From Octopus sinensis (lineage: Eukaryota), in contig NC_042998.1 of the NCBI RefSeq assembly GCF_006345805.1, positions 28,706,001 to 28,770,000 on the forward strand: a stretch of 64,000 nt of DNA. Direction: 5' to 3'. Below, one piece after another: positions 10,212-62,440 of the stretch (position 1 is the first letter of the stretch; each line of letters starts with the position of its first letter). The notes under the pieces were generated by a model that was not told where the DNA came from, made no database searches, and saw nothing but the letters and a program-made list of their open reading frames with translations. Both the position numbers and the translations under genes were made by a program.

Positions 10212-11502
10212 CGAGGGGCGTTCAATAAGTAATGCCTCTGACCCACTTGCATTTGGTTGATCTAGCTGAAATTTGACATGTGCAATTATTTATATCTCTA
10301 TAGATTAAGTGGCAAATTACAGCTCTGAACTAATTGTGGTTTCTGATTTACAGGTGTTTGAACTGAGTCAAGTGTAAAATGGAGCCTGTTGAGTGTCGAG
10401 CAGTGATGCGGTTTTTGTATTTGAAAGGACGCACACCACGGGAGACTTTTGATGAAATGAAAGTAACTTATGGTGATGACGCCCCATCATATGACCTTGT
10501 AAAACGCTGGCATCGTGAATTCAAACATGGTCGGAACTTTGTGGAAACAGCTCCCAGATCTGGTCGCCCCCTTCTGCCATTGATGAGGCATCTGTCCGTC
10601 AAGTTGAGGCTGCTATTTTGGAAGATCGATGCATAACTATTCGCCAAACAGCCCATGAGGTCAAGATTAGTACCGGGTCTGTGGAAACTATCATTCATGA
10701 CCATTTGCATATGCAAAAGGTGTCTGCCAGATGGATTCCCAGGTTGCTCACACCTTTCCAGAAGCAAGAACGCGTCGAGTGCTCAAGGATGAATTTGGAG
10801 ATGTGCCAAGAAGATGAGTCAAAATTTTTCAAAAGACTGATTACACAGGATGAAACCTGGGTCCATCACGATGATCCAGAGACCAAAGCCCAGTCAATGC
10901 AGTGGAAGCACCGTGACTCACCCCCTCCAAAGAAGGCAAGGGTGCAGCCCTCCGCTGGCAAGGTCATGCTCACAGTCTTCTGGGACCAGGACGGAGTACT
11001 GATGACAGATTTCCTGGCAAAGGGTACCACAATTGCAGGAGCCTATTATGCTTCACTTTTGAGGAAATTAAGAGAAGCTATCAAAATCAAGAGGCGGGGC
11101 AAGATCAGCAAAGGCATCCTCCTCCTGCAGGACAACGCTCCGATCCACAACTCGCGTGTCGCCAGATCAGAAGCACAGGCGTGCGGCTATGAACTCATCC
11201 CCCATTCTCCCTACTCTCCTGACCTTGCACCCTCTGATTTTCACCTCTTCCCAGCCATGAAGTTGTTTTTGAAAGGAAAGCGTTTCCCAGATGATGCAGC
11301 CTTGATTTCTGAAGTCACGTCGTGGTTGGAGGACCAAGCTGGGGTCTTCTACAAAAACGGTCTTCAGAGCTACATCAAACGATGGGAGAAATGCGTAACT
11401 CTGGGTGGTTCCTATGTAGAAAAAGACTAATAACTGTGCCAAGTTTCGTTGCTCTACTGCTATGGGAAGTGGGTCCGGGCATTACTTATTGAACGCCCCT
11501 CG
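10212..11502 (+). mobile_element. Full-length mariner (DD34D) transposon, 1291 bp
   Basis: Perfect 25 bp TIR CGAGGGGCGTTCAATAAGTAATGCC, extending imperfectly to GACCCACTT; TA TSD at 10210-11 and 11503-04. Confidence 0.97.
10379..11430 (+). CDS. Mariner transposase, ~350 aa, with one frameshift at the C5 run 10567-10571
   Basis: HTH N-terminus, RSGRP, WIPRLLT, DETW, QDNAPIH, YSPDLAPSD; 34 residues between the second and third catalytic D. Confidence 0.92.
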
Positions 11503-15753: not shown

Positions 15754-16010
15754 GTATTTAAATTTCAAAAAAAAAAATTAACTGATTCAACCAATGCTGA
15801 ACTTAATGTGTTTAATCTATGGCAAATGCACTAAAATACATCCATTTAAAAAGTAATGAGAAAATCTCCTGAGGCAAAACAATTTTTAATGAAGCTCAAG
15901 ACGCTATGAAAGTTGTTATACTTAACAAATTTTATTTACACCAATTTATATCCCTAAACATAAATTTCAAAAATTTACAAATGGACTTCCAGAAACCAGA
16001 CTAGATGGAT

Positions 16011-16249
16011 ATTATCTACATTATTTACATTTGACAGATATTTGTCCTCATCTTGTTTGTTGCTAACACAACGTTTGGCTGATATACCCTTCAGTCTTCA
16101 TCAGGTGTCTTGGGGAAATTTTGAACCTGGGTTCTCATTATAAGGTATTTTTCGATGTTATGATTATTCAGGTCACTGCCTAGAATTGAACTCGGAATCT
16201 TGGGGTTGGTAATCCGTGCTCTTAACCACTATGCCATATGCCCATGGGC
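16011..16249 (-). mobile_element. tRNA-headed, hammerhead-bearing SINE-like element (family H)
   Basis: Head with A and B boxes at 16170-16249; HHR motif at ~16065-16110 has lost the G of GAAA. Confidence 0.75.
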
Positions 16250-20269: not shown

Positions 20270-20620
20270 GTCCTATATTTAAGAGATGGGGAATTATGTA
20301 CATTATTTACATTAAGATTTATATTAGATTTATAAGCCCTAAAAATTCACTCCATAATTGCCCATGGGCATATGGCATAGCGATTAAGAGTGTGGGCTAC
20401 TAACCCCAAGATTCCGAGTTCAATTCCAGTGACCTGAATAGTAATAATAATAATAATAATGATAATAATAACATTGAAAAATACCTTAGGAATGAGAACC
20501 CAGGTTTGAAATTTCCCGAAGACACCTGAAGAAGGCTGGAGGGAATATCAGCTGAGAGGTTGTGTTAACAACAAACAAGATGAGCACAAATATCCGTCAA
20601 ATATGAATAATGCAAATAAT
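20270..20620 (+). mobile_element. Family H element: inverted 3'-end fragment, then full tRNA head, (TAA)n and HHR body
   Basis: Inverted terminus at 20270-20313; head 20360-20434 with B-box GAGTTCAATTCC; decayed HHR at 20521-20566. Confidence 0.75.
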
Positions 20621-20916
20621 GTAGATAATAGGTTTCGTCACCCTTTATGATTCGATTTCTGGGTTGAGCAATATTCATTTTGTATATTTAAGATACCAAC
20701 ATAACAGTGATGCAAATTTTAAAACAAGAAATCAAAAATGCAAGCGCCAAAACTGGTCTGGATCCTACCTTTTCTTAGGAACTTTTGCTGGAAAGTTTCA
20801 GAGACAAGTTTATATTCTAGGTTAGCAAAGAGAAAATTGTTCATGCGTCTTATTCCTGTAAAGCAGAGATTGATTCATCAAATAAGATTTTTTTTTTTTA
20901 AATAACTATTGTCACT

Positions 20917-21351
20917 ATATTATTTACATTTGAAAGATATTTGTCCTCATCTTGTTTGTTGTTAACACAACATTTCGATTGATATACCCATCAGCTTTCA
21001 TCAGATGTTGTGGGGAAATTTCAAACCTGGGTTCTCATTCCTGAGGTATTTTTTGATGTTAATATAATTATAATAATTATTATTATTCTGGTCACTGCCT
21101 GGAATCATACTCGGAATCTTTGGGTTAGTAGCCCATACTCTTAACCACTATGCCTGAATAACAATAGTAATAATAATAATATCGAAAACTATCTTAGGAA
21201 TGAGAAACCAGGTTCGAAATTTCCCCCAAGACACCTGATGAAGGCTGGAGGGTATATCAGCCAAAATGTGTTAACAATGAACAAGATGAGGACAAATATC
21301 TGTCAAATGTAAATAATGTACATAATTACTCCTCTCTTAAATATAGAACTG
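20917..21351. mobile_element. Family H fold-back insertion with 13 bp TSD
   Basis: AACTATTGTCACT at 20904-20916 and 21352-21364; inverted arms each carry a decayed HHR. Confidence 0.85.
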
Positions 21352-21725: not shown

Positions 21726-23364
21726 GCACTAAGGCACAGGTGTGGCTGTGTGGTAAGAAGTTTGCTTATCAACCACATGGTTCTGGGTTCAGTCCCACTG
21801 TGTGGCACCTTGAGCTAGTATCTTCTACTATAGCCTTGGGCCGACCAAAGCCTTTTGAGTGGATTTGGTAGATGGAAACTGAAAGAAGCTCAACATCATC
21901 ATCATCATTTAATGTCTGCTTTCCATGCTGGCATGGGTTGGGCAGTTTGACTGAGGTCTGAAGCGCCAGCGGCTGGATCAAGCTCCAATCGGATCTGGCA
22001 ATGTTTCTACAGCTGAATGCCCTTCCTAACGCCAACGACTCAGAGAGTGTAGTGGGTGCTTTTTACGTACCACTGGCACAGGAGCCAGTCAGGCAGGCCT
22101 GGCATCAAGCATATATACATACATACATACATATATACATATATGTATGTATGTATGTGTGTATGTTTGTGTGTCTGTGTTTGTCCACCCCATCCACCCT
22201 CATTTGGCAACCAGTGTTGGTGTGTTTACGTCCCTCTAACTTAGCGGTTCGGCAAAAGAGACCAATCGAATAAGTACTAAGCATACAAAGAATAAGTCCT
22301 GGGATCGATTCGTTTGACTAAAGGCAGTGCTCCAGCATGGCTACAGTCAAATGAATGAAACCTGTAAAAGAATAAAAGAAAACCAGTAGACTTTTAAATT
22401 AATCCCTTTTAAACCAAAGTGCTTAATCACACACTGCCTGTGTGCTGATGAAATTAACACTTACCATTGTCTGTATCCACAATGAATACAGTATTTCATA
22501 ACTGCAGATAACGAGGTTTATACTTTAGTCAATTAGATTCTCAAGGCCTCTGCGTTTAGTGCTTTTGTCTTTACAGGTTTGCTGTTGTATTGAGATTTTC
22601 TTTTTTTTTTATACACTCACCTATAAAGCTACACCACTTTATATGCTGTTTTCATATGAACTAGTTGTGACTATCTGATACCCTGTTCGCTTGATCATGC
22701 ACAGTTCTCAATTAGACTAACGACATTCAGTTGAATTAACTCTAATGAACTAAATTCAAGGAAGCATTTTCAAAGCTGTTCAACTTCCTCAATTTAACTG
22801 CCAATTTGATCTCCAGCTGACTTGTTTACCTTCAAAGAAGGTAAACATTAGGAAAATATAAAAAAAAAACCTGATGGTCACAGCTAACGATTATGATTGA
22901 GTAATTTGTTTGATCAGTTGCTTCCTTCGTATCATCGAACTGTTTAAACTAACCTGGCTAAGGCTACCTGACAACTATGTATGTTCCGAGCTGACGTTTG
23001 GTAGCGAGTTTTATGGTGCTAAACAAATAAGAGAACCTGGCAAAACACTGACAACAGATTTGAAATTATGAGCCATTGATCATATTGCTTCTATTCCAAA
23101 CATAAAAACCAATTTATCGGATGCAGATGTCCACTCGGGGTTAAAAAATCACTGAAGAGATCCATGGTCCAAATGGTCCAAATGGACAGCCATGTTGAAG
23201 TGGCTATGAACATTATTTGTTAGTACAAATATTGTGTTGATCTTTTAGAGAGATTTTAGAACTAGTATTTTTTGCTTGTTGCAAAATTAGCGACTGCATG
23301 TCACTTTAAATTATATATATTGTGAGCAGAAGTGAGCTACTGCCATCTCTAGCTGACAAGGTGT

Positions 23365-23414
23365 CCAGTACTGAAGAGAGGTAGAGATAGCCTGAAACCA
23401 GGCTGGTCTGCTGA
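23365..23414 (+). ncRNA. Type I hammerhead ribozyme motif
   Basis: CCAGTA-CTGAAGA-gAGG..CCT-GAAA-CCAGgCTGG-TC-TGCTGA; GUC cleavage triplet. Confidence 0.8.
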
Positions 23415-23705
23415 TCCCATCGCTAGAAGATGGTAGGGATTTGTGCCTCTGCTCACAATCTCTTGGATGCAACTGTGCATCATTAACCAGCTAGAAGAGA
23501 TGTCCTCTTGGGGTTAAAAAGAATCACAGTAAAATCCATTGAAACAGACAGCCATGTTGAAGTGGCTATGAACATTATGTGTCAGTACAACTACTGTGTT
23601 GATCTCTTAGAAAGATTTTCGAACTAGCATATTTGCTTGTTGTGTTCACTTGAAATATATATTGTGAGCAAAGTGAGCTGCTATCATATTTAGCAGACGA
23701 GGTGT

Positions 23706-23756
23706 CCACTACTGAGGAGGGACAAAAGTAGCCCGAAACTGGGACTGGTCTACTGG
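23706..23756 (+). ncRNA. Type I hammerhead ribozyme motif (second unit)
   Basis: CCACTA-CTGAGGA-GGG..CCC-GAAA-CTGGgaCTGG-TC-TACTGG. Confidence 0.75.
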
Positions 23757-25425
23757 TCTCATCAACTGGGAGATGGTAGGGGTTTGCTCCCCTGCTTGCA
23801 ATTTTATCGGATGCAGCTGTGCGTCGTTAATCAGCTAGAGGAGATGTCCTCTTGGGGTTAAATTGCAGTAGAGTCTGTTCAAATCCTTTTTTTTTTCTTC
23901 CCCAAATTCGGAACTGATGTAAAGTAAAATTGTTTTCAGAAAGAACTTAAACTCTGATTCTCAGTAAAGCATTAAATCCTTGCATTTTTAACCAATAGCT
24001 GAAATAATCATATGGATATAGCTTTGGCCAGAGAGAATTGAACTATTCAGTGCAAATTCCATCTTGAATTCAACATAGGCCTTTTTTTTTTTATGATTTT
24101 GGACAAAAGGAATAATTCTCTGTGCTCAGTTTACTTGTCTTTTAGGAAAGGGTTATAATTGTTCAGAGAATATCTGCCATTCTCATAATTATTTTTACAT
24201 TACATTTTCTCTGCTTGCATACATTAGATGAGTCTTCTTCAGTACCAGATATTGTCACATTTCTTGACCCCTAACGCTCTTTCTCAAATTTGATCCCTCT
24301 CATCCTTCAGCGTATATCACTTGGCCCTTTCCTTTTTCACATATATCCACACCCTCCACATATATCCTGTGGCATGGGTTGAACGGTTTGACAGGAGCCA
24401 GCAAGCTGCAGAGCTGCCCCAGGCTCCAATTGTCTGTTTTGGAATGCTGTCACTTCTTATTTCTTTACTACCTACAAGGGGCTAAACACAGAGGGAACAA
24501 ACAAGGACAGACAAAGGGATTAAGTCGGTTACATCGACCCCAGTGCATAACTGGTACTTATTTAATCAACCCTGAAAGGATGAAAGGCAAAGTCGACCTC
24601 GGCAGAATTTGAACTCAGAACGTAGCGGCAGACGAAATACTGCTAAGCATTTCACCCGGCGTGCTAACTTTTCTGCCAGCTCGCCACATTAATACAGTCA
24701 CTTCTCTTATACAATTGCATCTGATTCCTCTGATACTCAGTTTTTCTCTCAGCTCATTCCTCTGTTATTCATGCCTACCAACAATACACATCCCACAGAG
24801 TCTACTCACCTCATTTCTTTCCAGTCTTCATGCATCCTCTTCACACACTTTTAGCAAGGGTTGCTAATAATGCATCATTGCATTTTATACCCGAATATCA
24901 TACAATTTACCCTTCACTCAGGGAGAGAATCTCATCATTGTCAGTAGAGGTAATCATCATCATCGTTTAACGTCCGCTTTCCATGCTAGCATGGGTTGGA
25001 CGATTTGACTGAGGGCTGGTGAATCAGATGGCTGCACCAGGCTTCAATATTGATCTGGCAGAGTTTCTACAACTGGATGCCCTTCCTAACGCCAACCACT
25101 CCGAGAGTGTAGTGGATGCTTTTACGTGCCACCAGCATGGGGGCCAGTCAGGCGATACTGGCAACGACCTCACTCAAATCTTTTACACATGCCACCGGAA
25201 CAGATGCCAGTAAGGTGATGCTACTCTCTCTCAATTTATCCACTATTTTCTTTGGTTGAATATTAAGCTTTTCGATCCCCCACTTCCACAACTAGGTCAC
25301 ATAGATAACAAAACCTACCTTCTACTTCTGTTCAGTCATCTTAGCAACATTATAGGCCCCAGGGAGAAATCCGTGCACTGGACCCTATAGTGTTTATTTA
25401 TTGACAGTAAACTATAGTCTACATA

Positions 25426-36629: not shown

Positions 36630-37678
36630 CCTTTTTTCAGTCTGCAGAGAAATGGCAAAAATTTGCCCTGTTTATAATTATGCCATATGTTACGTGTATA
36701 TATATATATATATATATATGGGTGTGTGTGATTGTGTATAGAAGAATATATTAATAAAAAGAATTCCAACCTTGTCTGATTTTCACGTTTTATTTACAAT
36801 CTTATAATGATATATTATAAGATAATATATTATAATTGAATAAAATAAAATAAAATGAAATAGTAGAATGTTAAATATTCATTCTGATTGAACTAGTACT
36901 TTCATGCATTGAATTCTGCAATCTTCGGGTTCATGTAGTAGTGTTGACAGTCATGCTTCACAATTTTTGACTGTAGCAAGATGATTGATTCTGTGCTATA
37001 AATACAGCTGGGTAGGCTCCAGAGTGCTAGGTTTTGCAAACTGTATTCTGACCAATCAGTGTGTAGTATCACTCAATTACTTAAGCTGATTGGTTGGTTG
37101 AGCTGATTGGTTTAGGCATCACGCTTTGTTGGACATGTCAAAAGTCCTGTATCTTGACCCTGGCCGAAGCAGCAATTGTTGGGTTATTTTTAGAAATGTT
37201 GTAAATATCCTTTGTCAGAGATTTTTATATTTTTATATTTTTATATTTCAATTGTCATCATCATCATTGTCAGCACCTTAATTATTGTTGCTAGTGGTGA
37301 TGGTTATGGCAATAGAACTTTTAACCCTAAATAAGATAATTTTCTGCTATCTTCGTCTTGATCACCTTTAGTATTGTTGTTGTTGTTAGTGGTCATGGTC
37401 GTAGCAGTGGAAGTAATACCTCTAAGTATTATTATTATTATTATTGCTTATTTAGTTTGGGTTCGAATTTATCAATAAATTCTTTTCTCTGATTTTCCTC
37501 TCGATTTCACTTGGGCTGTGTAATTTGTAGAATGGAAATATTATATATATTTTCCGACCACATGTTGCTAGGTGGTTACTCAAAGGTATCTGACGGACCT
37601 CTGGGTCTCTAATCTGTTGCCGGTGTACACGTGAGCGTTCTAATAGTGCGTTTCCCGTCTGACCTACATATATTTCTA

Positions 37679-37909
37679 TATGTAGGTCAGACGGGAAACG
37701 CACTATTAGAACGCTCACGTGTACACCGGCAACAGATTAGAGACCCAGAGGTCCGTCAGATACCTTTGAGTAACCACCTAGCAACATGTGGTCGGAAAAT
37801 ATATATAATATTTCCATTCTACAAATTACACAGCCCAAGTGAAATCGAGAGGAAAATCAGAGAAAAGAATTTTATTGATAAATTCGAACCCAAACTAAAT
37901 AAGCAATAA
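37679..37909 (+). pseudogene. GIY-YIG endonuclease C-terminal half (PLE ORF end), mirrored on the minus strand
   Basis: YVGQTG...ERSRVHR...NHL...E.KIREKNFIDKFEPKLN matches the YIG, R..H, E and P.LN motifs. Confidence 0.85.
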
Positions 37910-38417
37910 TAATAATAATAATACTTAGAGGTATTACTTCCACTGCTACGACCATGACCACTAACAACAACAACAATACTAAAGGTGATCAAGACGAAGA
38001 TAGCAGGAAAATTATCTTATTTAGGGTTAAAAGTTCTATTGCCATAACCATCACCACTAGCAACAATAATTAAGGTGCTGACAATGATGATGATGACAAT
38101 TGAAATATAAAAATATAAAAATATAAAAATCTCTGACAAAGGATATTTACAACATTTCTAAAAATAACCCAACAATTGCTGCTTCGGCCAGGGTCAAGAT
38201 ACAGGACTTTTGACATGTCCAACAAAGCGTGATGCCTAAACCAATCAGCTCAACCAACCAATCAGCTTAAGTAATTGAGTGATACTACACACTGATTGGT
38301 CAGAATACAGTTTGCAAAACCTAGCACTCTGGAGCCTACCCAGCTGTATTTATAGCACAGAATCAATCATCTTGCTACAGTCAAAAATTGTGAAGCATGA
38401 CTGTCAACACTACTACA

Positions 38418-38462
38418 TGAACCCGAAGATTGCAGAATTCAATGCATGAAAGTACTAGTTCA
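38418..38462 (+). ncRNA. Minimal type I hammerhead in the PLE 3' region (mirror at 36889-36933 on -)
   Basis: TGAAC-CCGAAGA-tTGCAgaattcaaTGCAt-GAAA-GTAC-TA-GTTCA; palindromic stem III AGTACT; U4C core variant. Confidence 0.75.
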
Positions 38463-38620
38463 ATCAGAATGAATATTTAACATTCTACTATTTCATTTTA
38501 TTTTATTTTATTCAATTATAATATATTATCTTATAATATATCATTATAAGATTGTAAATAAAACGTGAAAATCAGACAAGGTTGGAATTCTTTTTATTAA
38601 TATATATATATATATATATA

Positions 38621-41679: not shown

Positions 41680-41879
41680 CCGGAGTAAGCACATAAATGT
41701 GAAACAAGGTGGAAAAAAGACTACTCAAATACCAGAGGTAGAGTAATATGCTTTATTTAAAAGCAGCAGAAATATAACAAAAGCTGTTACTCAGTTTCAC
41801 GTTCCTGATCGTTCGACGAACGGGAAAGTGAAACTCTGAGTAACAGCTTTTGTTATATTTCTGCTGCTTTTAAATAAAG
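41680..41879. mobile_element. Second copy of the 390-623 fold-back family
   Basis: Same tail; inverted repeat 41751-41879 folds back inside the HHR core (GACGA-ACGGGAAAGT-GAAA-CTCTGAG-TA-ACAG). Confidence 0.8.
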
Positions 41880-42547
41880 TATATATACATACATACATAC
41901 ATATGTACCTACATACAGGAGACTAAAAGTGTACGTACAATAAATATATATATATATATACACACACATACAAATTCATATAAATATACATGCATATATC
42001 CATTTAACCCTTTAGAATTTAAACTAGGCATATATGGCTCAAATATCCTTACTGGTTTATGTTGAAACCAGTCAGAACTGGTTTCTCATTCTACCCTACA
42101 ATAAACAATCCCATCCTCAAAATGGTGAAGCTATGAGATGATACACGATTAATCTAAACATGTGTGTGACACTTGACAACCGGTGTTGGTGTGTTTACAT
42201 CCCAGTAACTTAGTGGTTTGGCAAAGGAGATTGATAGAATAGGTATCAGGCTTAAAAAATGCACTGGGGTCAATTTGTTCAGCTAAAATTCTTGAAGGTG
42301 GCGTCCTTGTATGGGAGCAGTCTTACAACTGAAACAAGTAAGATATACATATAGGCACAAGAGTGGCTGTGTGGTAAGTAGCTTGCTTACAAACCACATG
42401 ATTCTGGGTTCAGTTCCACTGTGTGGCACCTTGGGCAAGTGTCTTCTACTATAGCCTCGGACCAACCAAAGCCTCGTGAGTGGATTTGGTAGACAGAAAC
42501 TGAAAGAATCCCATCGTGTGTGTGTATATATATATGTATATATATAT

Positions 42548-46810: not shown

Positions 46811-46998
46811 GCATTATTTACGTTATTTACATTTGACGGATATGTATCCTCATCTTGTTTGTTGTTACCACAACGTTTCAGCTGATTTACTCTCCAGCCT
46901 TCATCAGGTGTCCAGGTGGAATTTTGAACCCAACCCTGGATTCTAATTCCTAAGGTATTTTTTGCTGATGTTATTATTATTATTATTATTATTATTAT
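46811..46998 (-). mobile_element. Family H fragment with intact HHR core (46867-46912)
   Basis: GACAC-CTGATGA-AGGCTG...CAGCT-GAAA-CG-TT-GTGGT. Confidence 0.75.
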
Positions 46999-49948: not shown

Positions 49949-50095
49949 TATTTACATTATTTACATTTGACGGATATTTGTCCTCATCTTGTTTGTTGTT
50001 AACACAATGTTTTGGCTGATATACCCTCCAGCTTTCATCAGATGTCTTGGAGAAATTTCGAACCTGGGTTCTCATTCCTAAGATATTTTTTGATG

Positions 50096-50136
<41 letters not shown>

Positions 50137-50327
50137 TTCATTGCCTGGAATTGAACTCGGAATCTTGGGGTTAGTAGCCCATACTCTTAACCACTATGCC
50201 ATAATAATAATATGAAGACTGGAGGGTATATCAGCTGAAATGTTATCTTAGCTACAAACAAGATGAGGACAAATACCCATCAAATGTAAATAATGTAAAT
50301 AATTCCTCATCTCTTGAATATAGAACT
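49949..50327. mobile_element. Family H fold-back insertion
   Basis: Minus-strand body and tRNA head, then a plus-strand 3' part ending TCTTGAATATAGAAC. Confidence 0.8.
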
Positions 50328-52940: not shown

Positions 52941-53177
52941 GTTCTATAATTAAGAGATGAGGAATTATGTACGTTATTTACATTTGACGGATATTTGTCC
53001 TAATCTTGTTTGTTGTTAACACAACGTTTCAGCTGTCATACCCACCAGCCTTCATCAGGTGTCTTGGGGAAATTTTGAACCTGGGTTCCCATTCCTAAGG
53101 TATTTTTCTATGTTGTTATTATTATTATTATTATTATTGTTATTGTTATTATTATTATTATTATTCCAGGCAGTGAA

Positions 53178-53211
<34 letters not shown>

Positions 53212-53358
53212 TCGAAAAATACTTTAGGAATGAGAACTCAGGTTTGAAATTTCCTCAAGACACCTGATGAAGGCTGGAGGGTATATCAGCTGAAACGTTG
53301 TGTTAACAACAAACAAGATGAGGACAAATATCTGTCAAATGTAAATAATGTAAATAAT
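52941..53358. mobile_element. Family H fold-back with intact HHRs on both strands (53018-53063 on -, 53259-53304 on +)
   Basis: GACAC-CTGATGA-A-GGCTG..CAGCT-GAAA-CG-TT-GTGTT on each arm; unpaired tail at 52941-52963. Confidence 0.85.
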
Positions 53359-53463
53359 ACCTTATTACTAAAGCCATTTTGAGCAAGAGCAGAAACTGCT
53401 TCATGGGAGTTCATCCTGCAGAAAATAACAGCCAGTTGTCCTTGAAATCACATTTTTTTTTTT

Positions 53464-60500: not shown

Positions 60501-61707
60501 CGTGCATTTGTTCAAATATTAGATTAGAAATTCCTTACCTGTGCAATAAAGCCTTAATATTGATGCTCATTCTCTGTCAGATAACGGACCAGAGGAGTGA
60601 TGACGATGAAATCATGATTCAAGTACATCCCTCACCTTCATCATTATCATCATCATCATTTAGCGTTCATTGTCCATGCTGTCATGGTTTGGATGGTTTA
60701 ACTGGGCCTGGCAAACTGGAAGGCTGCACCAGACTCCAGTTGTCTGATTTGGCATGGTTTTCTACAGCTGGATGCCCTTCATAACGCCAACCACTCTGTG
60801 GGTGTAATGAGTGCTTTTATGTGCTACTGGCACGGGTGGTGGCATTTGTGTGACACTGGGGTGCTTTTAATTGCCACTAACACAGGTGCCACTTTGCATA
60901 ACACCGGTATCTGTCACGACAAGGTGGCGAGCTGGCACAATCGTTGGCACGCCGGGCAAAATGCTTAGCGGTATTTCGCTTGCCGTTACGTTCTGAGTTC
61001 AAATTCCGCCGAGGTCGACTTTGCTTTTCATCCTTTCGGGGTCGATAAATTAAGTACCAGTTATGCACTGGGGTCGATATAATCGACTTAATACCTATGT
61101 CTGTCCATGTTTGTCCCCTCTATGTTTAGCCCCTTGTGGGTAATAAAGAAATAGGTATTTCGTCTGCCGTTACATTCTGAGTTTAAATTCTGCCGAGGTC
61201 GACTTTGCCTTTCTTCCTTTCGGGGTCGATAAATTAAGTACCAGTTACTCACTGGGGTTGATATAATCGACTTAATCCGTTTGTCTGTCCTTGTTTGTCC
61301 TCTCTGTGTTTAGCCCCTTGTGGGTAGTAAAGAAATAGGTATGTTGCTAAATTGGCTATGTTGCTTCATGAATAGAAGACCACACAGCAGGTGAGTTGAG
61401 CAAGGTGATAAGCAGCACTTCCTCAAGGAAAATCCAATGTGCTACTGAAATATCCATGGATGACTCAATGTGCAGACCCCCATCAACCACCACCACAACC
61501 ACCACCACCATCATCACCATTGTTCTTCTCAAGCATGACATAATGCCAAAGGTCTTGGTTGTTTTGCCTCAACAAAAATAAATGAAAGAGACCACCTGAC
61601 TGATTAGCATGAAGTTCCTCACCAAAGTATTCCATCTTCTAATCTAAAGATGTTCTGTCTGTGGAAGAGATATTCCACAGATAGAAACATCTGTGAACTT
61701 GAAAATA

Positions 61708-62208
61708 GAAATAATATATTTCTAAATCTCTCAGAGAGATTTATGCAGTAACAGCATGATAAAGTGATAGCATGTTGTCAACTTAATGTGACAGTCCCCT
61801 GAAAGGGAAGAATGCTACTGTAATTTAGCCCTAGGAAACACCGTTCCCTGTTGGACTTGACACATTTCCTGTGTTCTTATGTTTTCAAAGTGGAGACAAG
61901 CACCTCCACCCAGCAAAACCAGTATCCAGAGACTAGTTTCAGAGTCCTTGCTCATCATCAGTCTGGAGTAGCATGGCTTGCTAGCTGCCAACACCTATCC
62001 ACCCTTGAAAAGATATGTGATGAGCAGTGACTCTGAAACTAGTCTCTGGATGCTGGATTTGCTGGCTGGAGGTGCTTGTCTCCACTTTGAAAACATAAGG
62101 ATACAGGATATGTGTCAACTCCAACAGGAAACGGTGTTTCCTAGGGCTAAATAACAGTAGCATTCTTCCCTTTCATGGGACTGTCACATTAAGTTGACAA
62201 CATGCTAT
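61708..62208. mobile_element. Fold-back HHR element with ~20 bp TSD
   Basis: Arms ~61765-61957 and 62017-62210; CATCTGTGAACTTG(A/C)AAATA at 61688 and 62209. Confidence 0.85.
61925..61967 (-). ncRNA. Type I hammerhead ribozyme motif, canonical core
   Basis: TCCAGA-CTGATGA-tGAGcaaggaCTCt-GAAA-CTAG-TC-TCTGGA; perfect 6 bp stem I, palindromic stem III, GUC triplet. Confidence 0.85.
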
Positions 62209-62440
62209 CATCTGTGAACTTGCAAATACCTTGTCTATTGCTACCACAGAGGCTCCTGATTCTCAGTACTAATTAGGCCCCACTTGTGCCCATCTAGTTC
62301 ACTCATCTAATCCTTCCATTATCACCCATATTATGCCCAGTGCTAATTCTTGCAGACTTCTGAATAGCTGCTTTGCTCAGAACTTTTCCCAGAGAACGTT
62401 AACTCTCTGCGGATGCTAACATTTCTACCAGCTCGCTGCC

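Follow-up and report, generated by a model that had tools for sequence, protein, structure and literature searches.

A fold-back insert at 61688-62228 of the octopus window (the whole 64-kb stretch of DNA that was analyzed) appears to be made of two head-to-head, 5'-truncated retrozyme pieces, likely inserted by the RT and endonuclease of a Penelope-like element (PLE) acting in trans. We class the repeat family behind it, a high-copy, non-coding, head-to-tail unit of ~346 nt with a predicted hammerhead, as an animal non-LTR retrozyme. The locus in the window taken alone is probably an old, likely inert repeat.

The insert of ~500 bases consists of a 310-nt piece and an inverted, tail-less 193-nt piece joined head to head (Table 1). 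Its arms are 193 nt each and 94% complementary, with mismatches at 12 of 193 sites. The two ends are asymmetric: a gap of 57 nt separates the left direct repeat from the left arm, while the right direct repeat overlaps the right arm by 2 nt. The 19 identities in the 20-nt direct repeat compare with a best value of 16 and a mean of 13.35 when the right flank was shuffled 60 times. The left 310-nt piece is truncated at its 5' end at 62017, and inspection of the sequence showed that the 60-nt spacer at the junction between the two pieces is non-palindromic, with microhomology of at most 1 nt. Inverted arms of ~190 bp, an unpaired tail of ~57 bp on one side, a right arm that starts inside the hammerhead core, and a position outside a (TA)n tract had all been described in an earlier note on this DNA, and all were borne out; the flanks are not (TA)n. 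Self-BLAST found no second family copy in the 64-kb window, and none of the ten other fold-backs in the window has a comparable non-microsatellite direct repeat adjoining its arms.

Table 1. Features of the fold-back insert and its direct repeats, in window coordinates.
Feature	Position	Strand	Basis or remark
Left direct repeat (TSD, 9-20 bp)	61688..61707	+	19/20 identity with right copy; 61699-61707 doubles as family sequence continuing the tail
One-sided tail, 57 nt, AT-rich, two small hairpins	61708..61764	-	Family sequence 3' of arm end; covered by family contigs
Left arm, putative retrozyme unit body	61765..61957	- (sense)	Inverted-repeat match and family contigs
Type I hammerhead motif with distal helix I	61913..61981	-	Predicted; core and proximal stems 61967-61925
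Spacer, 60 nt: 5' half of hammerhead and upstream unit part	61958..62017	-	Family depth runs to ~62016
Right arm: inverted, 5'-truncated, tail-less second copy without a complete ribozyme	62018..62210	+	Begins at U7 of the hammerhead core
Right direct repeat (target DNA)	62209..62228	+	First 2 nt common to arm end; 62220-62228 fits family continuation at 8/9

The hammerhead motif has a 6-bp stem I, the core CUGAUGA, a 3-bp stem II with a 6-nt loop, and GAAA. Its helix III is the self-complementary ACUAGU with a UC cut site, and cleavage is predicted between 61931 and 61930 (after C61931); a distal helix I lengthens the motif to the limits given in Table 1. Canonical metazoan type I hammerheads have a helix I of ~6 bp, a short helix II, and a short (1-2 bp) palindromic helix III (Cervera & de la Pena 2014, PMC4209133), and the motif at 61967-61925 fits this form, unlike the minimal motifs at 53058 and 53264 of the window. 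The canonical minus-strand hammerhead of the earlier note therefore held up in its type I form but not at positions 10.1/11.1, where U.U stands instead of the usual G-C, a pair that is conserved in type I hammerheads (PMC4209133). The U.U is common to most of the family depth; loop 2 and positions 10.1 and 11.1 vary among family contigs.

A hammerhead descriptor found 4 motifs in the window versus 1 in total across 30 block-shuffled windows. Rfam gave 0 matches in the window at gathering scores, and of its 14 matches at E<=10, 0 were to a hammerhead family. Rfam matches to miRNA precursors were rejected because they fell far under the gathering scores and reflect the hairpin alone. Among the variant rows listed for 61745-61978 (the best 40 of 74), 0 of 31 variant positions fell in the 29 core, stem I, and helix III positions (P~0.016), a figure that the remaining rows could weaken. 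Folded alone, the 76-nt ribozyme region is unexceptional (z of -1.31). When the folded RNA covers the entire insert, each of the 17 ribozyme pairs has a predicted probability of 0.000; the arms are predicted to pair and to mask the ribozyme, which probably leaves this copy inert.

A scan of viral contigs with the ribozyme pattern gave 0 matches. Matches to the pattern in metagenomes (3 distinct loci) were rejected as family members because only ~42 nt of ribozyme are held in common. These marine-type contigs (L001:629-669, L002:314-353, L002:1041-1080, and L003:765-804) have the same helix III and stem I letters with G-C at 10.1/11.1; they contain related tandem units measuring 1021 nt in L001 and 727 nt in L002, above the 150-450 nt of animal retrozymes.

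The family was surveyed by aligning contigs of four public runs (X2, X3, X4, and X7, with four organism labels; 24 runs were listed) to 61525-62045. Family contigs were found in 4/4 runs (4917, 3325, 4675, and 4733, numbers of contigs and not of copies). Depth was high over ~61699-61990 and faded to ~62016; outside ~61699-62016, contigs piled up only on an unrelated repeat at the left edge. Since family depth extends over the tail and the spacer, both are family sequence. Single contigs spanned the unique left flank and bridged the filled left junction in X3 (0 differences) and in X4 (6 differences in 195 nt), while X2 and X7 had no cover of the flank, which is no sign of an empty site.

The unit size comes from joints at which contigs go back to an earlier position, drawn from the best 12 of 14 table rows and amounting to a few contig joints rather than a read-through array. 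Two such joints in X4 lead back to 61699, one from 62016 across 28 nt (346 nt) and the other from 62010 across 38 nt (350 nt), and one in X7 starts from 61984 and crosses 31 nt, giving a shorter, 317-nt variant unit. In three runs, 34/28/39 family contigs extend through 61699, and the consensus of the loose ends before 61699 (34/28/39 contigs) and before 61702 (29/20/37) resembles the linker of the unit. No reading frame is open throughout the unit, the longest ATG frame has 47 codons, and GC is 0.41. Folding of 318 of the ~346 nt (the linker being absent) gave -92.8 kcal/mol (z of -2.35), and 0 of 100 shuffles were as stable. The 310 nt of the window copy are less than one unit. Metazoan non-LTR retrozymes are defined as non-coding tandem units of about this size that carry a canonical type I hammerhead (PMC7229834), and the family is classed accordingly. 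Six runs recorded as RNA or guessed to be RNA, which share 7-12% of words, were rejected as evidence of expression.

Among the joints listed (the best 15 of 81), 8 of 15 switch strand, each at a different position pair (61730/61987, 61757/61870, 61780/61882, 61795/61917, 61798/61962, 61830/61900, 61845/61987, and 61877/61970), 5 skip, and 2 go back. Two table rows (from 61858 and 61922, among the best 12 of 14) share the head-to-head polarity of the window copy. Because the strand-switch points vary among copies, the family has no fixed TIRs and is not a MITE. Target-primed retrotransposition rather than cut-and-paste movement of a MITE had been proposed in the earlier note, with fixed symmetric TIRs set in advance as the observation that would count against it; what was found instead is a 57-nt asymmetry and variable points of strand switching, which supports the proposal. 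Several family copies have their 5' truncation on the 5' side of the ribozyme (at 61957 in this insert, and at 61962 and 61970 in joints or pieces), and no 5' truncation point falls at the cut site (61931) among the matches listed. The numbers are small, and stalling of the RT at the ribozyme fold is possible.

On the 3' side, the outer end of the tail (61699-61706) is a common family end: 30/36/47 contigs end at 61706 and continue into long, diverse, AT-rich flanks, in agreement with the tailed boundary of the insert. A family end at 61765 is absent from the best 24 of 1,095 loose-end rows. Three pieces in X7 that start at 61772-61776 were rejected as proof of a second 3' end, being ambiguous and open to explanation by a divergent subfamily.

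The direct repeat had been read as a TSD of ~20 bp with one mismatch. The repeat is real, but this length is probably overstated because 61699-61707 on the left is also element sequence. The single mismatch falls within this stretch, and there the left copy has the family letter. The right-hand target matches the family 9-mer at 8 of 9 positions, for which the chance is 2-4 in 10,000 per position, with the comparison chosen post hoc. The TSD is thus 9-20 bp, of which only 9 bp are unambiguous, with RNA-target homology at the tailed end. It may be 18-20 bp, the mismatch being a later mutation (plausible in view of the 6% divergence of the arms), or ~14 bp or less with the rest being cDNA. Whichever length is right, the target end could base-pair with the RNA that follows the tail. 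The best 24 of 1,095 loose-end rows include no empty site, which would be detectable only as a loose end behind 61707 (61525-62045 covered).

The signature of PLE insertion is an inverted, 5'-truncated copy with a tail on one end and a TSD (PMC3846280; PMC8557442), the tail measuring 30-40 nt (PMC8557442, PMC11167929). An inverted, 5'-truncated, head-to-head copy with variable truncation is present both in the window and in the family joints. The PLE protein of the anole, in purified form, cuts one strand and then the other and extends each; it begins copying at two internal RNA sites, the distance between them being the tail, and accepts RNA that has not been cut (PMC11167929). By analogy with these steps, the enzyme would nick the two target strands ~9-20 nt apart and expose a 3' overhang on each. 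A 310-nt cDNA would be primed by the top-strand end, which is complementary to the RNA immediately beyond the tail at 8 of 9 nt, and a 193-nt cDNA by the bottom-strand end, at a second internal start 57 nt upstream, so that the tail would be the spacing of the two start sites. Both cDNAs would pass the ribozyme cut site, stop, and then be joined head to head. Crossing of the cut site by both cDNAs would point to a template that was uncut, multimeric, or a re-closed circle.

Several observations weigh against a PLE enzyme acting on a retrozyme. The anole PLE primes without RNA-target homology and favours ATT (PMC11167929), and the site in the window fits neither behavior. The 57-nt tail of the window copy exceeds the reported 30-40 nt, U.U replaces the conserved G10.1-C11.1 pair, and in Xenopus 8 of 9 retrozyme dimers tested failed to cleave (10.64898/2026.07.22.740005). 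The filled left junctions of X3 and X4, the absence of 61765 from the listed family ends, and the small number of joints behind the tandem unit also count against it.

The unique left flank (61648-61697) contains three alternating TCTGTG(G)AA-like copies that form a DNA hairpin (-14.7 kcal/mol). In one alternative form of this hairpin, the loop edge coincides with the inferred bottom-strand nick (61688-61690), which may reflect structure-guided nicking or chance.

A more specific version of the PLE reading, which we offer tentatively, is that a single multimeric or circular retrozyme RNA serves as template for two priming events by the enzyme and that the first cDNA stalls at the second complex. 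One nicked strand would anneal just past the tail, and the other would start one unit upstream, at the second internal site. The left piece stops ~28 nt short of the end of the next unit, and we speculate from this single case that the shortfall is what a second complex at that place would leave. If this is true, the insertion would be a direct DNA record of a circular or concatemeric ribozyme RNA that was reverse-transcribed, and twin priming would explain the inverted repeats of PLEs, the tails, and the single-haplotype arms in one step.

The same element and enzyme could also have produced the insert by fold-back, if the cDNA snapped back at 62017, was copied to 61765, and was resolved by the endonuclease with the tail remaining on one side. 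The arms bear on this alternative. At the 27 arm variant sites listed, the arms agree at 20; at 6, a minority letter in the left arm faces the majority letter in the right; both arms differ from the majority at 1; and 5 arm differences lie at sites outside the listed rows. Both arms come from one haplotype, as expected from fold-back (with independent sites, a random second copy would give this at P~0.003, a figure overstated because of linkage), and self-priming with endonuclease resolution has been proposed for PLEs (PMC3846280; PMC8557442). However, a single haplotype would also follow if both primings used the same tandem or circular RNA, and self-priming of PLEs was argued from junction palindromes (PMC3846280), whereas the junction here is the non-palindromic spacer. 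We consider fold-back unlikely.

It is improbable that the pieces are truncated pseudo-LTR (pLTR) ends of an autonomous coding PLE, with the joints being partial tandems and no independent retrozyme existing. An ATG in the hammerhead core lies 25 nt before the cut site, compared with 26 bp in the anole PLE (PMC11167929), partial-tandem joints do occur (61985->61706, 61981->61701), and retrozymes and pLTRs are homologous in Xenopus (10.64898/2026.07.22.740005). Yet the ATG (61954) is lost in 24-40% of the family depth, several contigs run from the tail through a short linker into the unit again, and the ribozyme is canonical rather than of the minimal pLTR type. The frame that starts at this ATG stops after 44-47 codons, before the tail; with such a stop and a variable ATG, a vestigial PLE ORF was rejected as unproven.

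Movement of the retrozyme by a LINE-type enzyme, with the inversion produced by twin priming, has very little probability in our judgment. A long TSD and RNA-target microhomology fit the target-primed retrotransposition (TPRT) of LINEs and are to that extent compatible with the insert. LINEs have also been named as possible mobilisers of retrozymes (PMC7229834). The 3' tail, however, has neither poly(A) nor a simple repeat, and a 193-nt inverted duplication with a one-sided tail is of a kind described as unseen in non-LTR TPRT (PMC8557442). A MITE or fold-back DNA transposon with long TIRs and a chance hammerhead-like motif, or an assembly artefact, would account for long inverted arms and a direct repeat but is barely credible given the asymmetric ends, the variable inversion points, the head-to-tail unit, the conserved ribozyme positions, the 12 of 193 differences between the arms, and the single contigs of X3 and X4 that bridge the left junction.

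Other repeats in the window also carry hammerhead-like motifs. At 23125-23862, two tandem units with 76% identity and a spacing of ~340-370 nt have decayed hammerhead-like cores at 23371 and 23712 and are probably a second, older retrozyme family. A different, frequent family at 52950-53372 carries minimal-type hammerheads at 53058 (-) and 53264 (+) beside (AAT)n, often occurs as head-to-head pairs, and has related pieces at 16010-16168, 20443-21350, 46813-46998, and 49949-50327; we interpret it as putative PLE pLTR-like remnants. A near-perfect palindromic fold-back at 455-628 (related to 41731-41886) is bordered by (TA)n tracts and has a minimal hammerhead-like core in each arm, and its central palindrome is the type of junction used in arguing for self-priming. 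A very young nested inverted repeat, also between (TA)n tracts, is found at 36737-38614 (608-nt arms at 99% and 196-nt arms at 100%). An open frame of 303 aa at 10519-11430 presumably resembles a mariner-type transposase.

Which enzyme moves animal retrozymes is still an open question in the field. The published case for mobilisation by PLEs is built on co-occurrence and pLTR similarity, chiefly in vertebrates (PMC7229834; 10.64898/2026.07.22.740005). Unlike co-occurrence or pLTR similarity, a retrozyme with the PLE-specific inverted-plus-tail structure would be mechanistic footprint evidence, of modest value. In a family with this many short copies (thousands), TSD length, RT starts, RNA-target homology, and arm haplotypes could be counted, and such counting across family copies would discriminate dual priming from fold-back for PLEs generally. 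In the literature searched, which included parts of PMC8969392 and PMC11722881, we found no description of octopus retrozymes or of retrozymes with an inverted copy and a tail; an entry in a repeat library such as Repbase or Dfam is possible. The main text of PMC7229834 uses "inverted" 0 times and "octopus" 0 times, and in 10.64898/2026.07.22.740005 "tail" and "octopus" each occur 0 times and "inverted" once.

Metazoan non-LTR retrozymes are non-coding, multicopy tandem units of 150-450 nt (350-390 nt in mussel) with a GC content of <50% and, when one is present, a TSD of >4 bp (Cervera & de la Pena 2020, PMC7229834; Li, Clavereau & Pollet 2026, 10.64898/2026.07.22.740005). The family described here resembles them in unit size, a canonical type I hammerhead, GC of <50%, many copies, and a TSD of >4 bp. 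It differs from those described in the head-to-head inversion and one-sided tail of the window copy and in the U.U at 10.1/11.1. With EN+ PLEs that have inverted pLTR insertions, the insert shares a head-to-head, 5'-truncated copy, a tail on one end, a TSD, a hammerhead upstream of the 3' end, and cDNA that would run through the cut site (Arkhipova 2013, PMC3846280; Craig 2021, PMC8557442; Frangieh 2024, PMC11167929). Unlike EN+ PLEs, it has no RT or GIY-YIG ORF and no junction palindrome, and its ribozyme is canonical rather than minimal. Its TSD is up to 20 bp versus 8-10 bp in Adineta PLEs, and its RNA-target homology is 8 of 9 nt, whereas the anole enzyme needs none in vitro (PMC11167929). 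The non-autonomous head-to-tail units of Chlamys PLEs such as MRC1 likewise have PLE-type insertion structures (Craig 2021, PMC8557442); they belong to a green-algal clade that the same paper describes as having no canonical hammerheads and are set beside the octopus family by description only. The insert resembles a PLE insertion and, by every sequence feature that could be tested, is classed as a non-LTR retrozyme; it is neither an autonomous PLE, having no ORF, nor a MITE.
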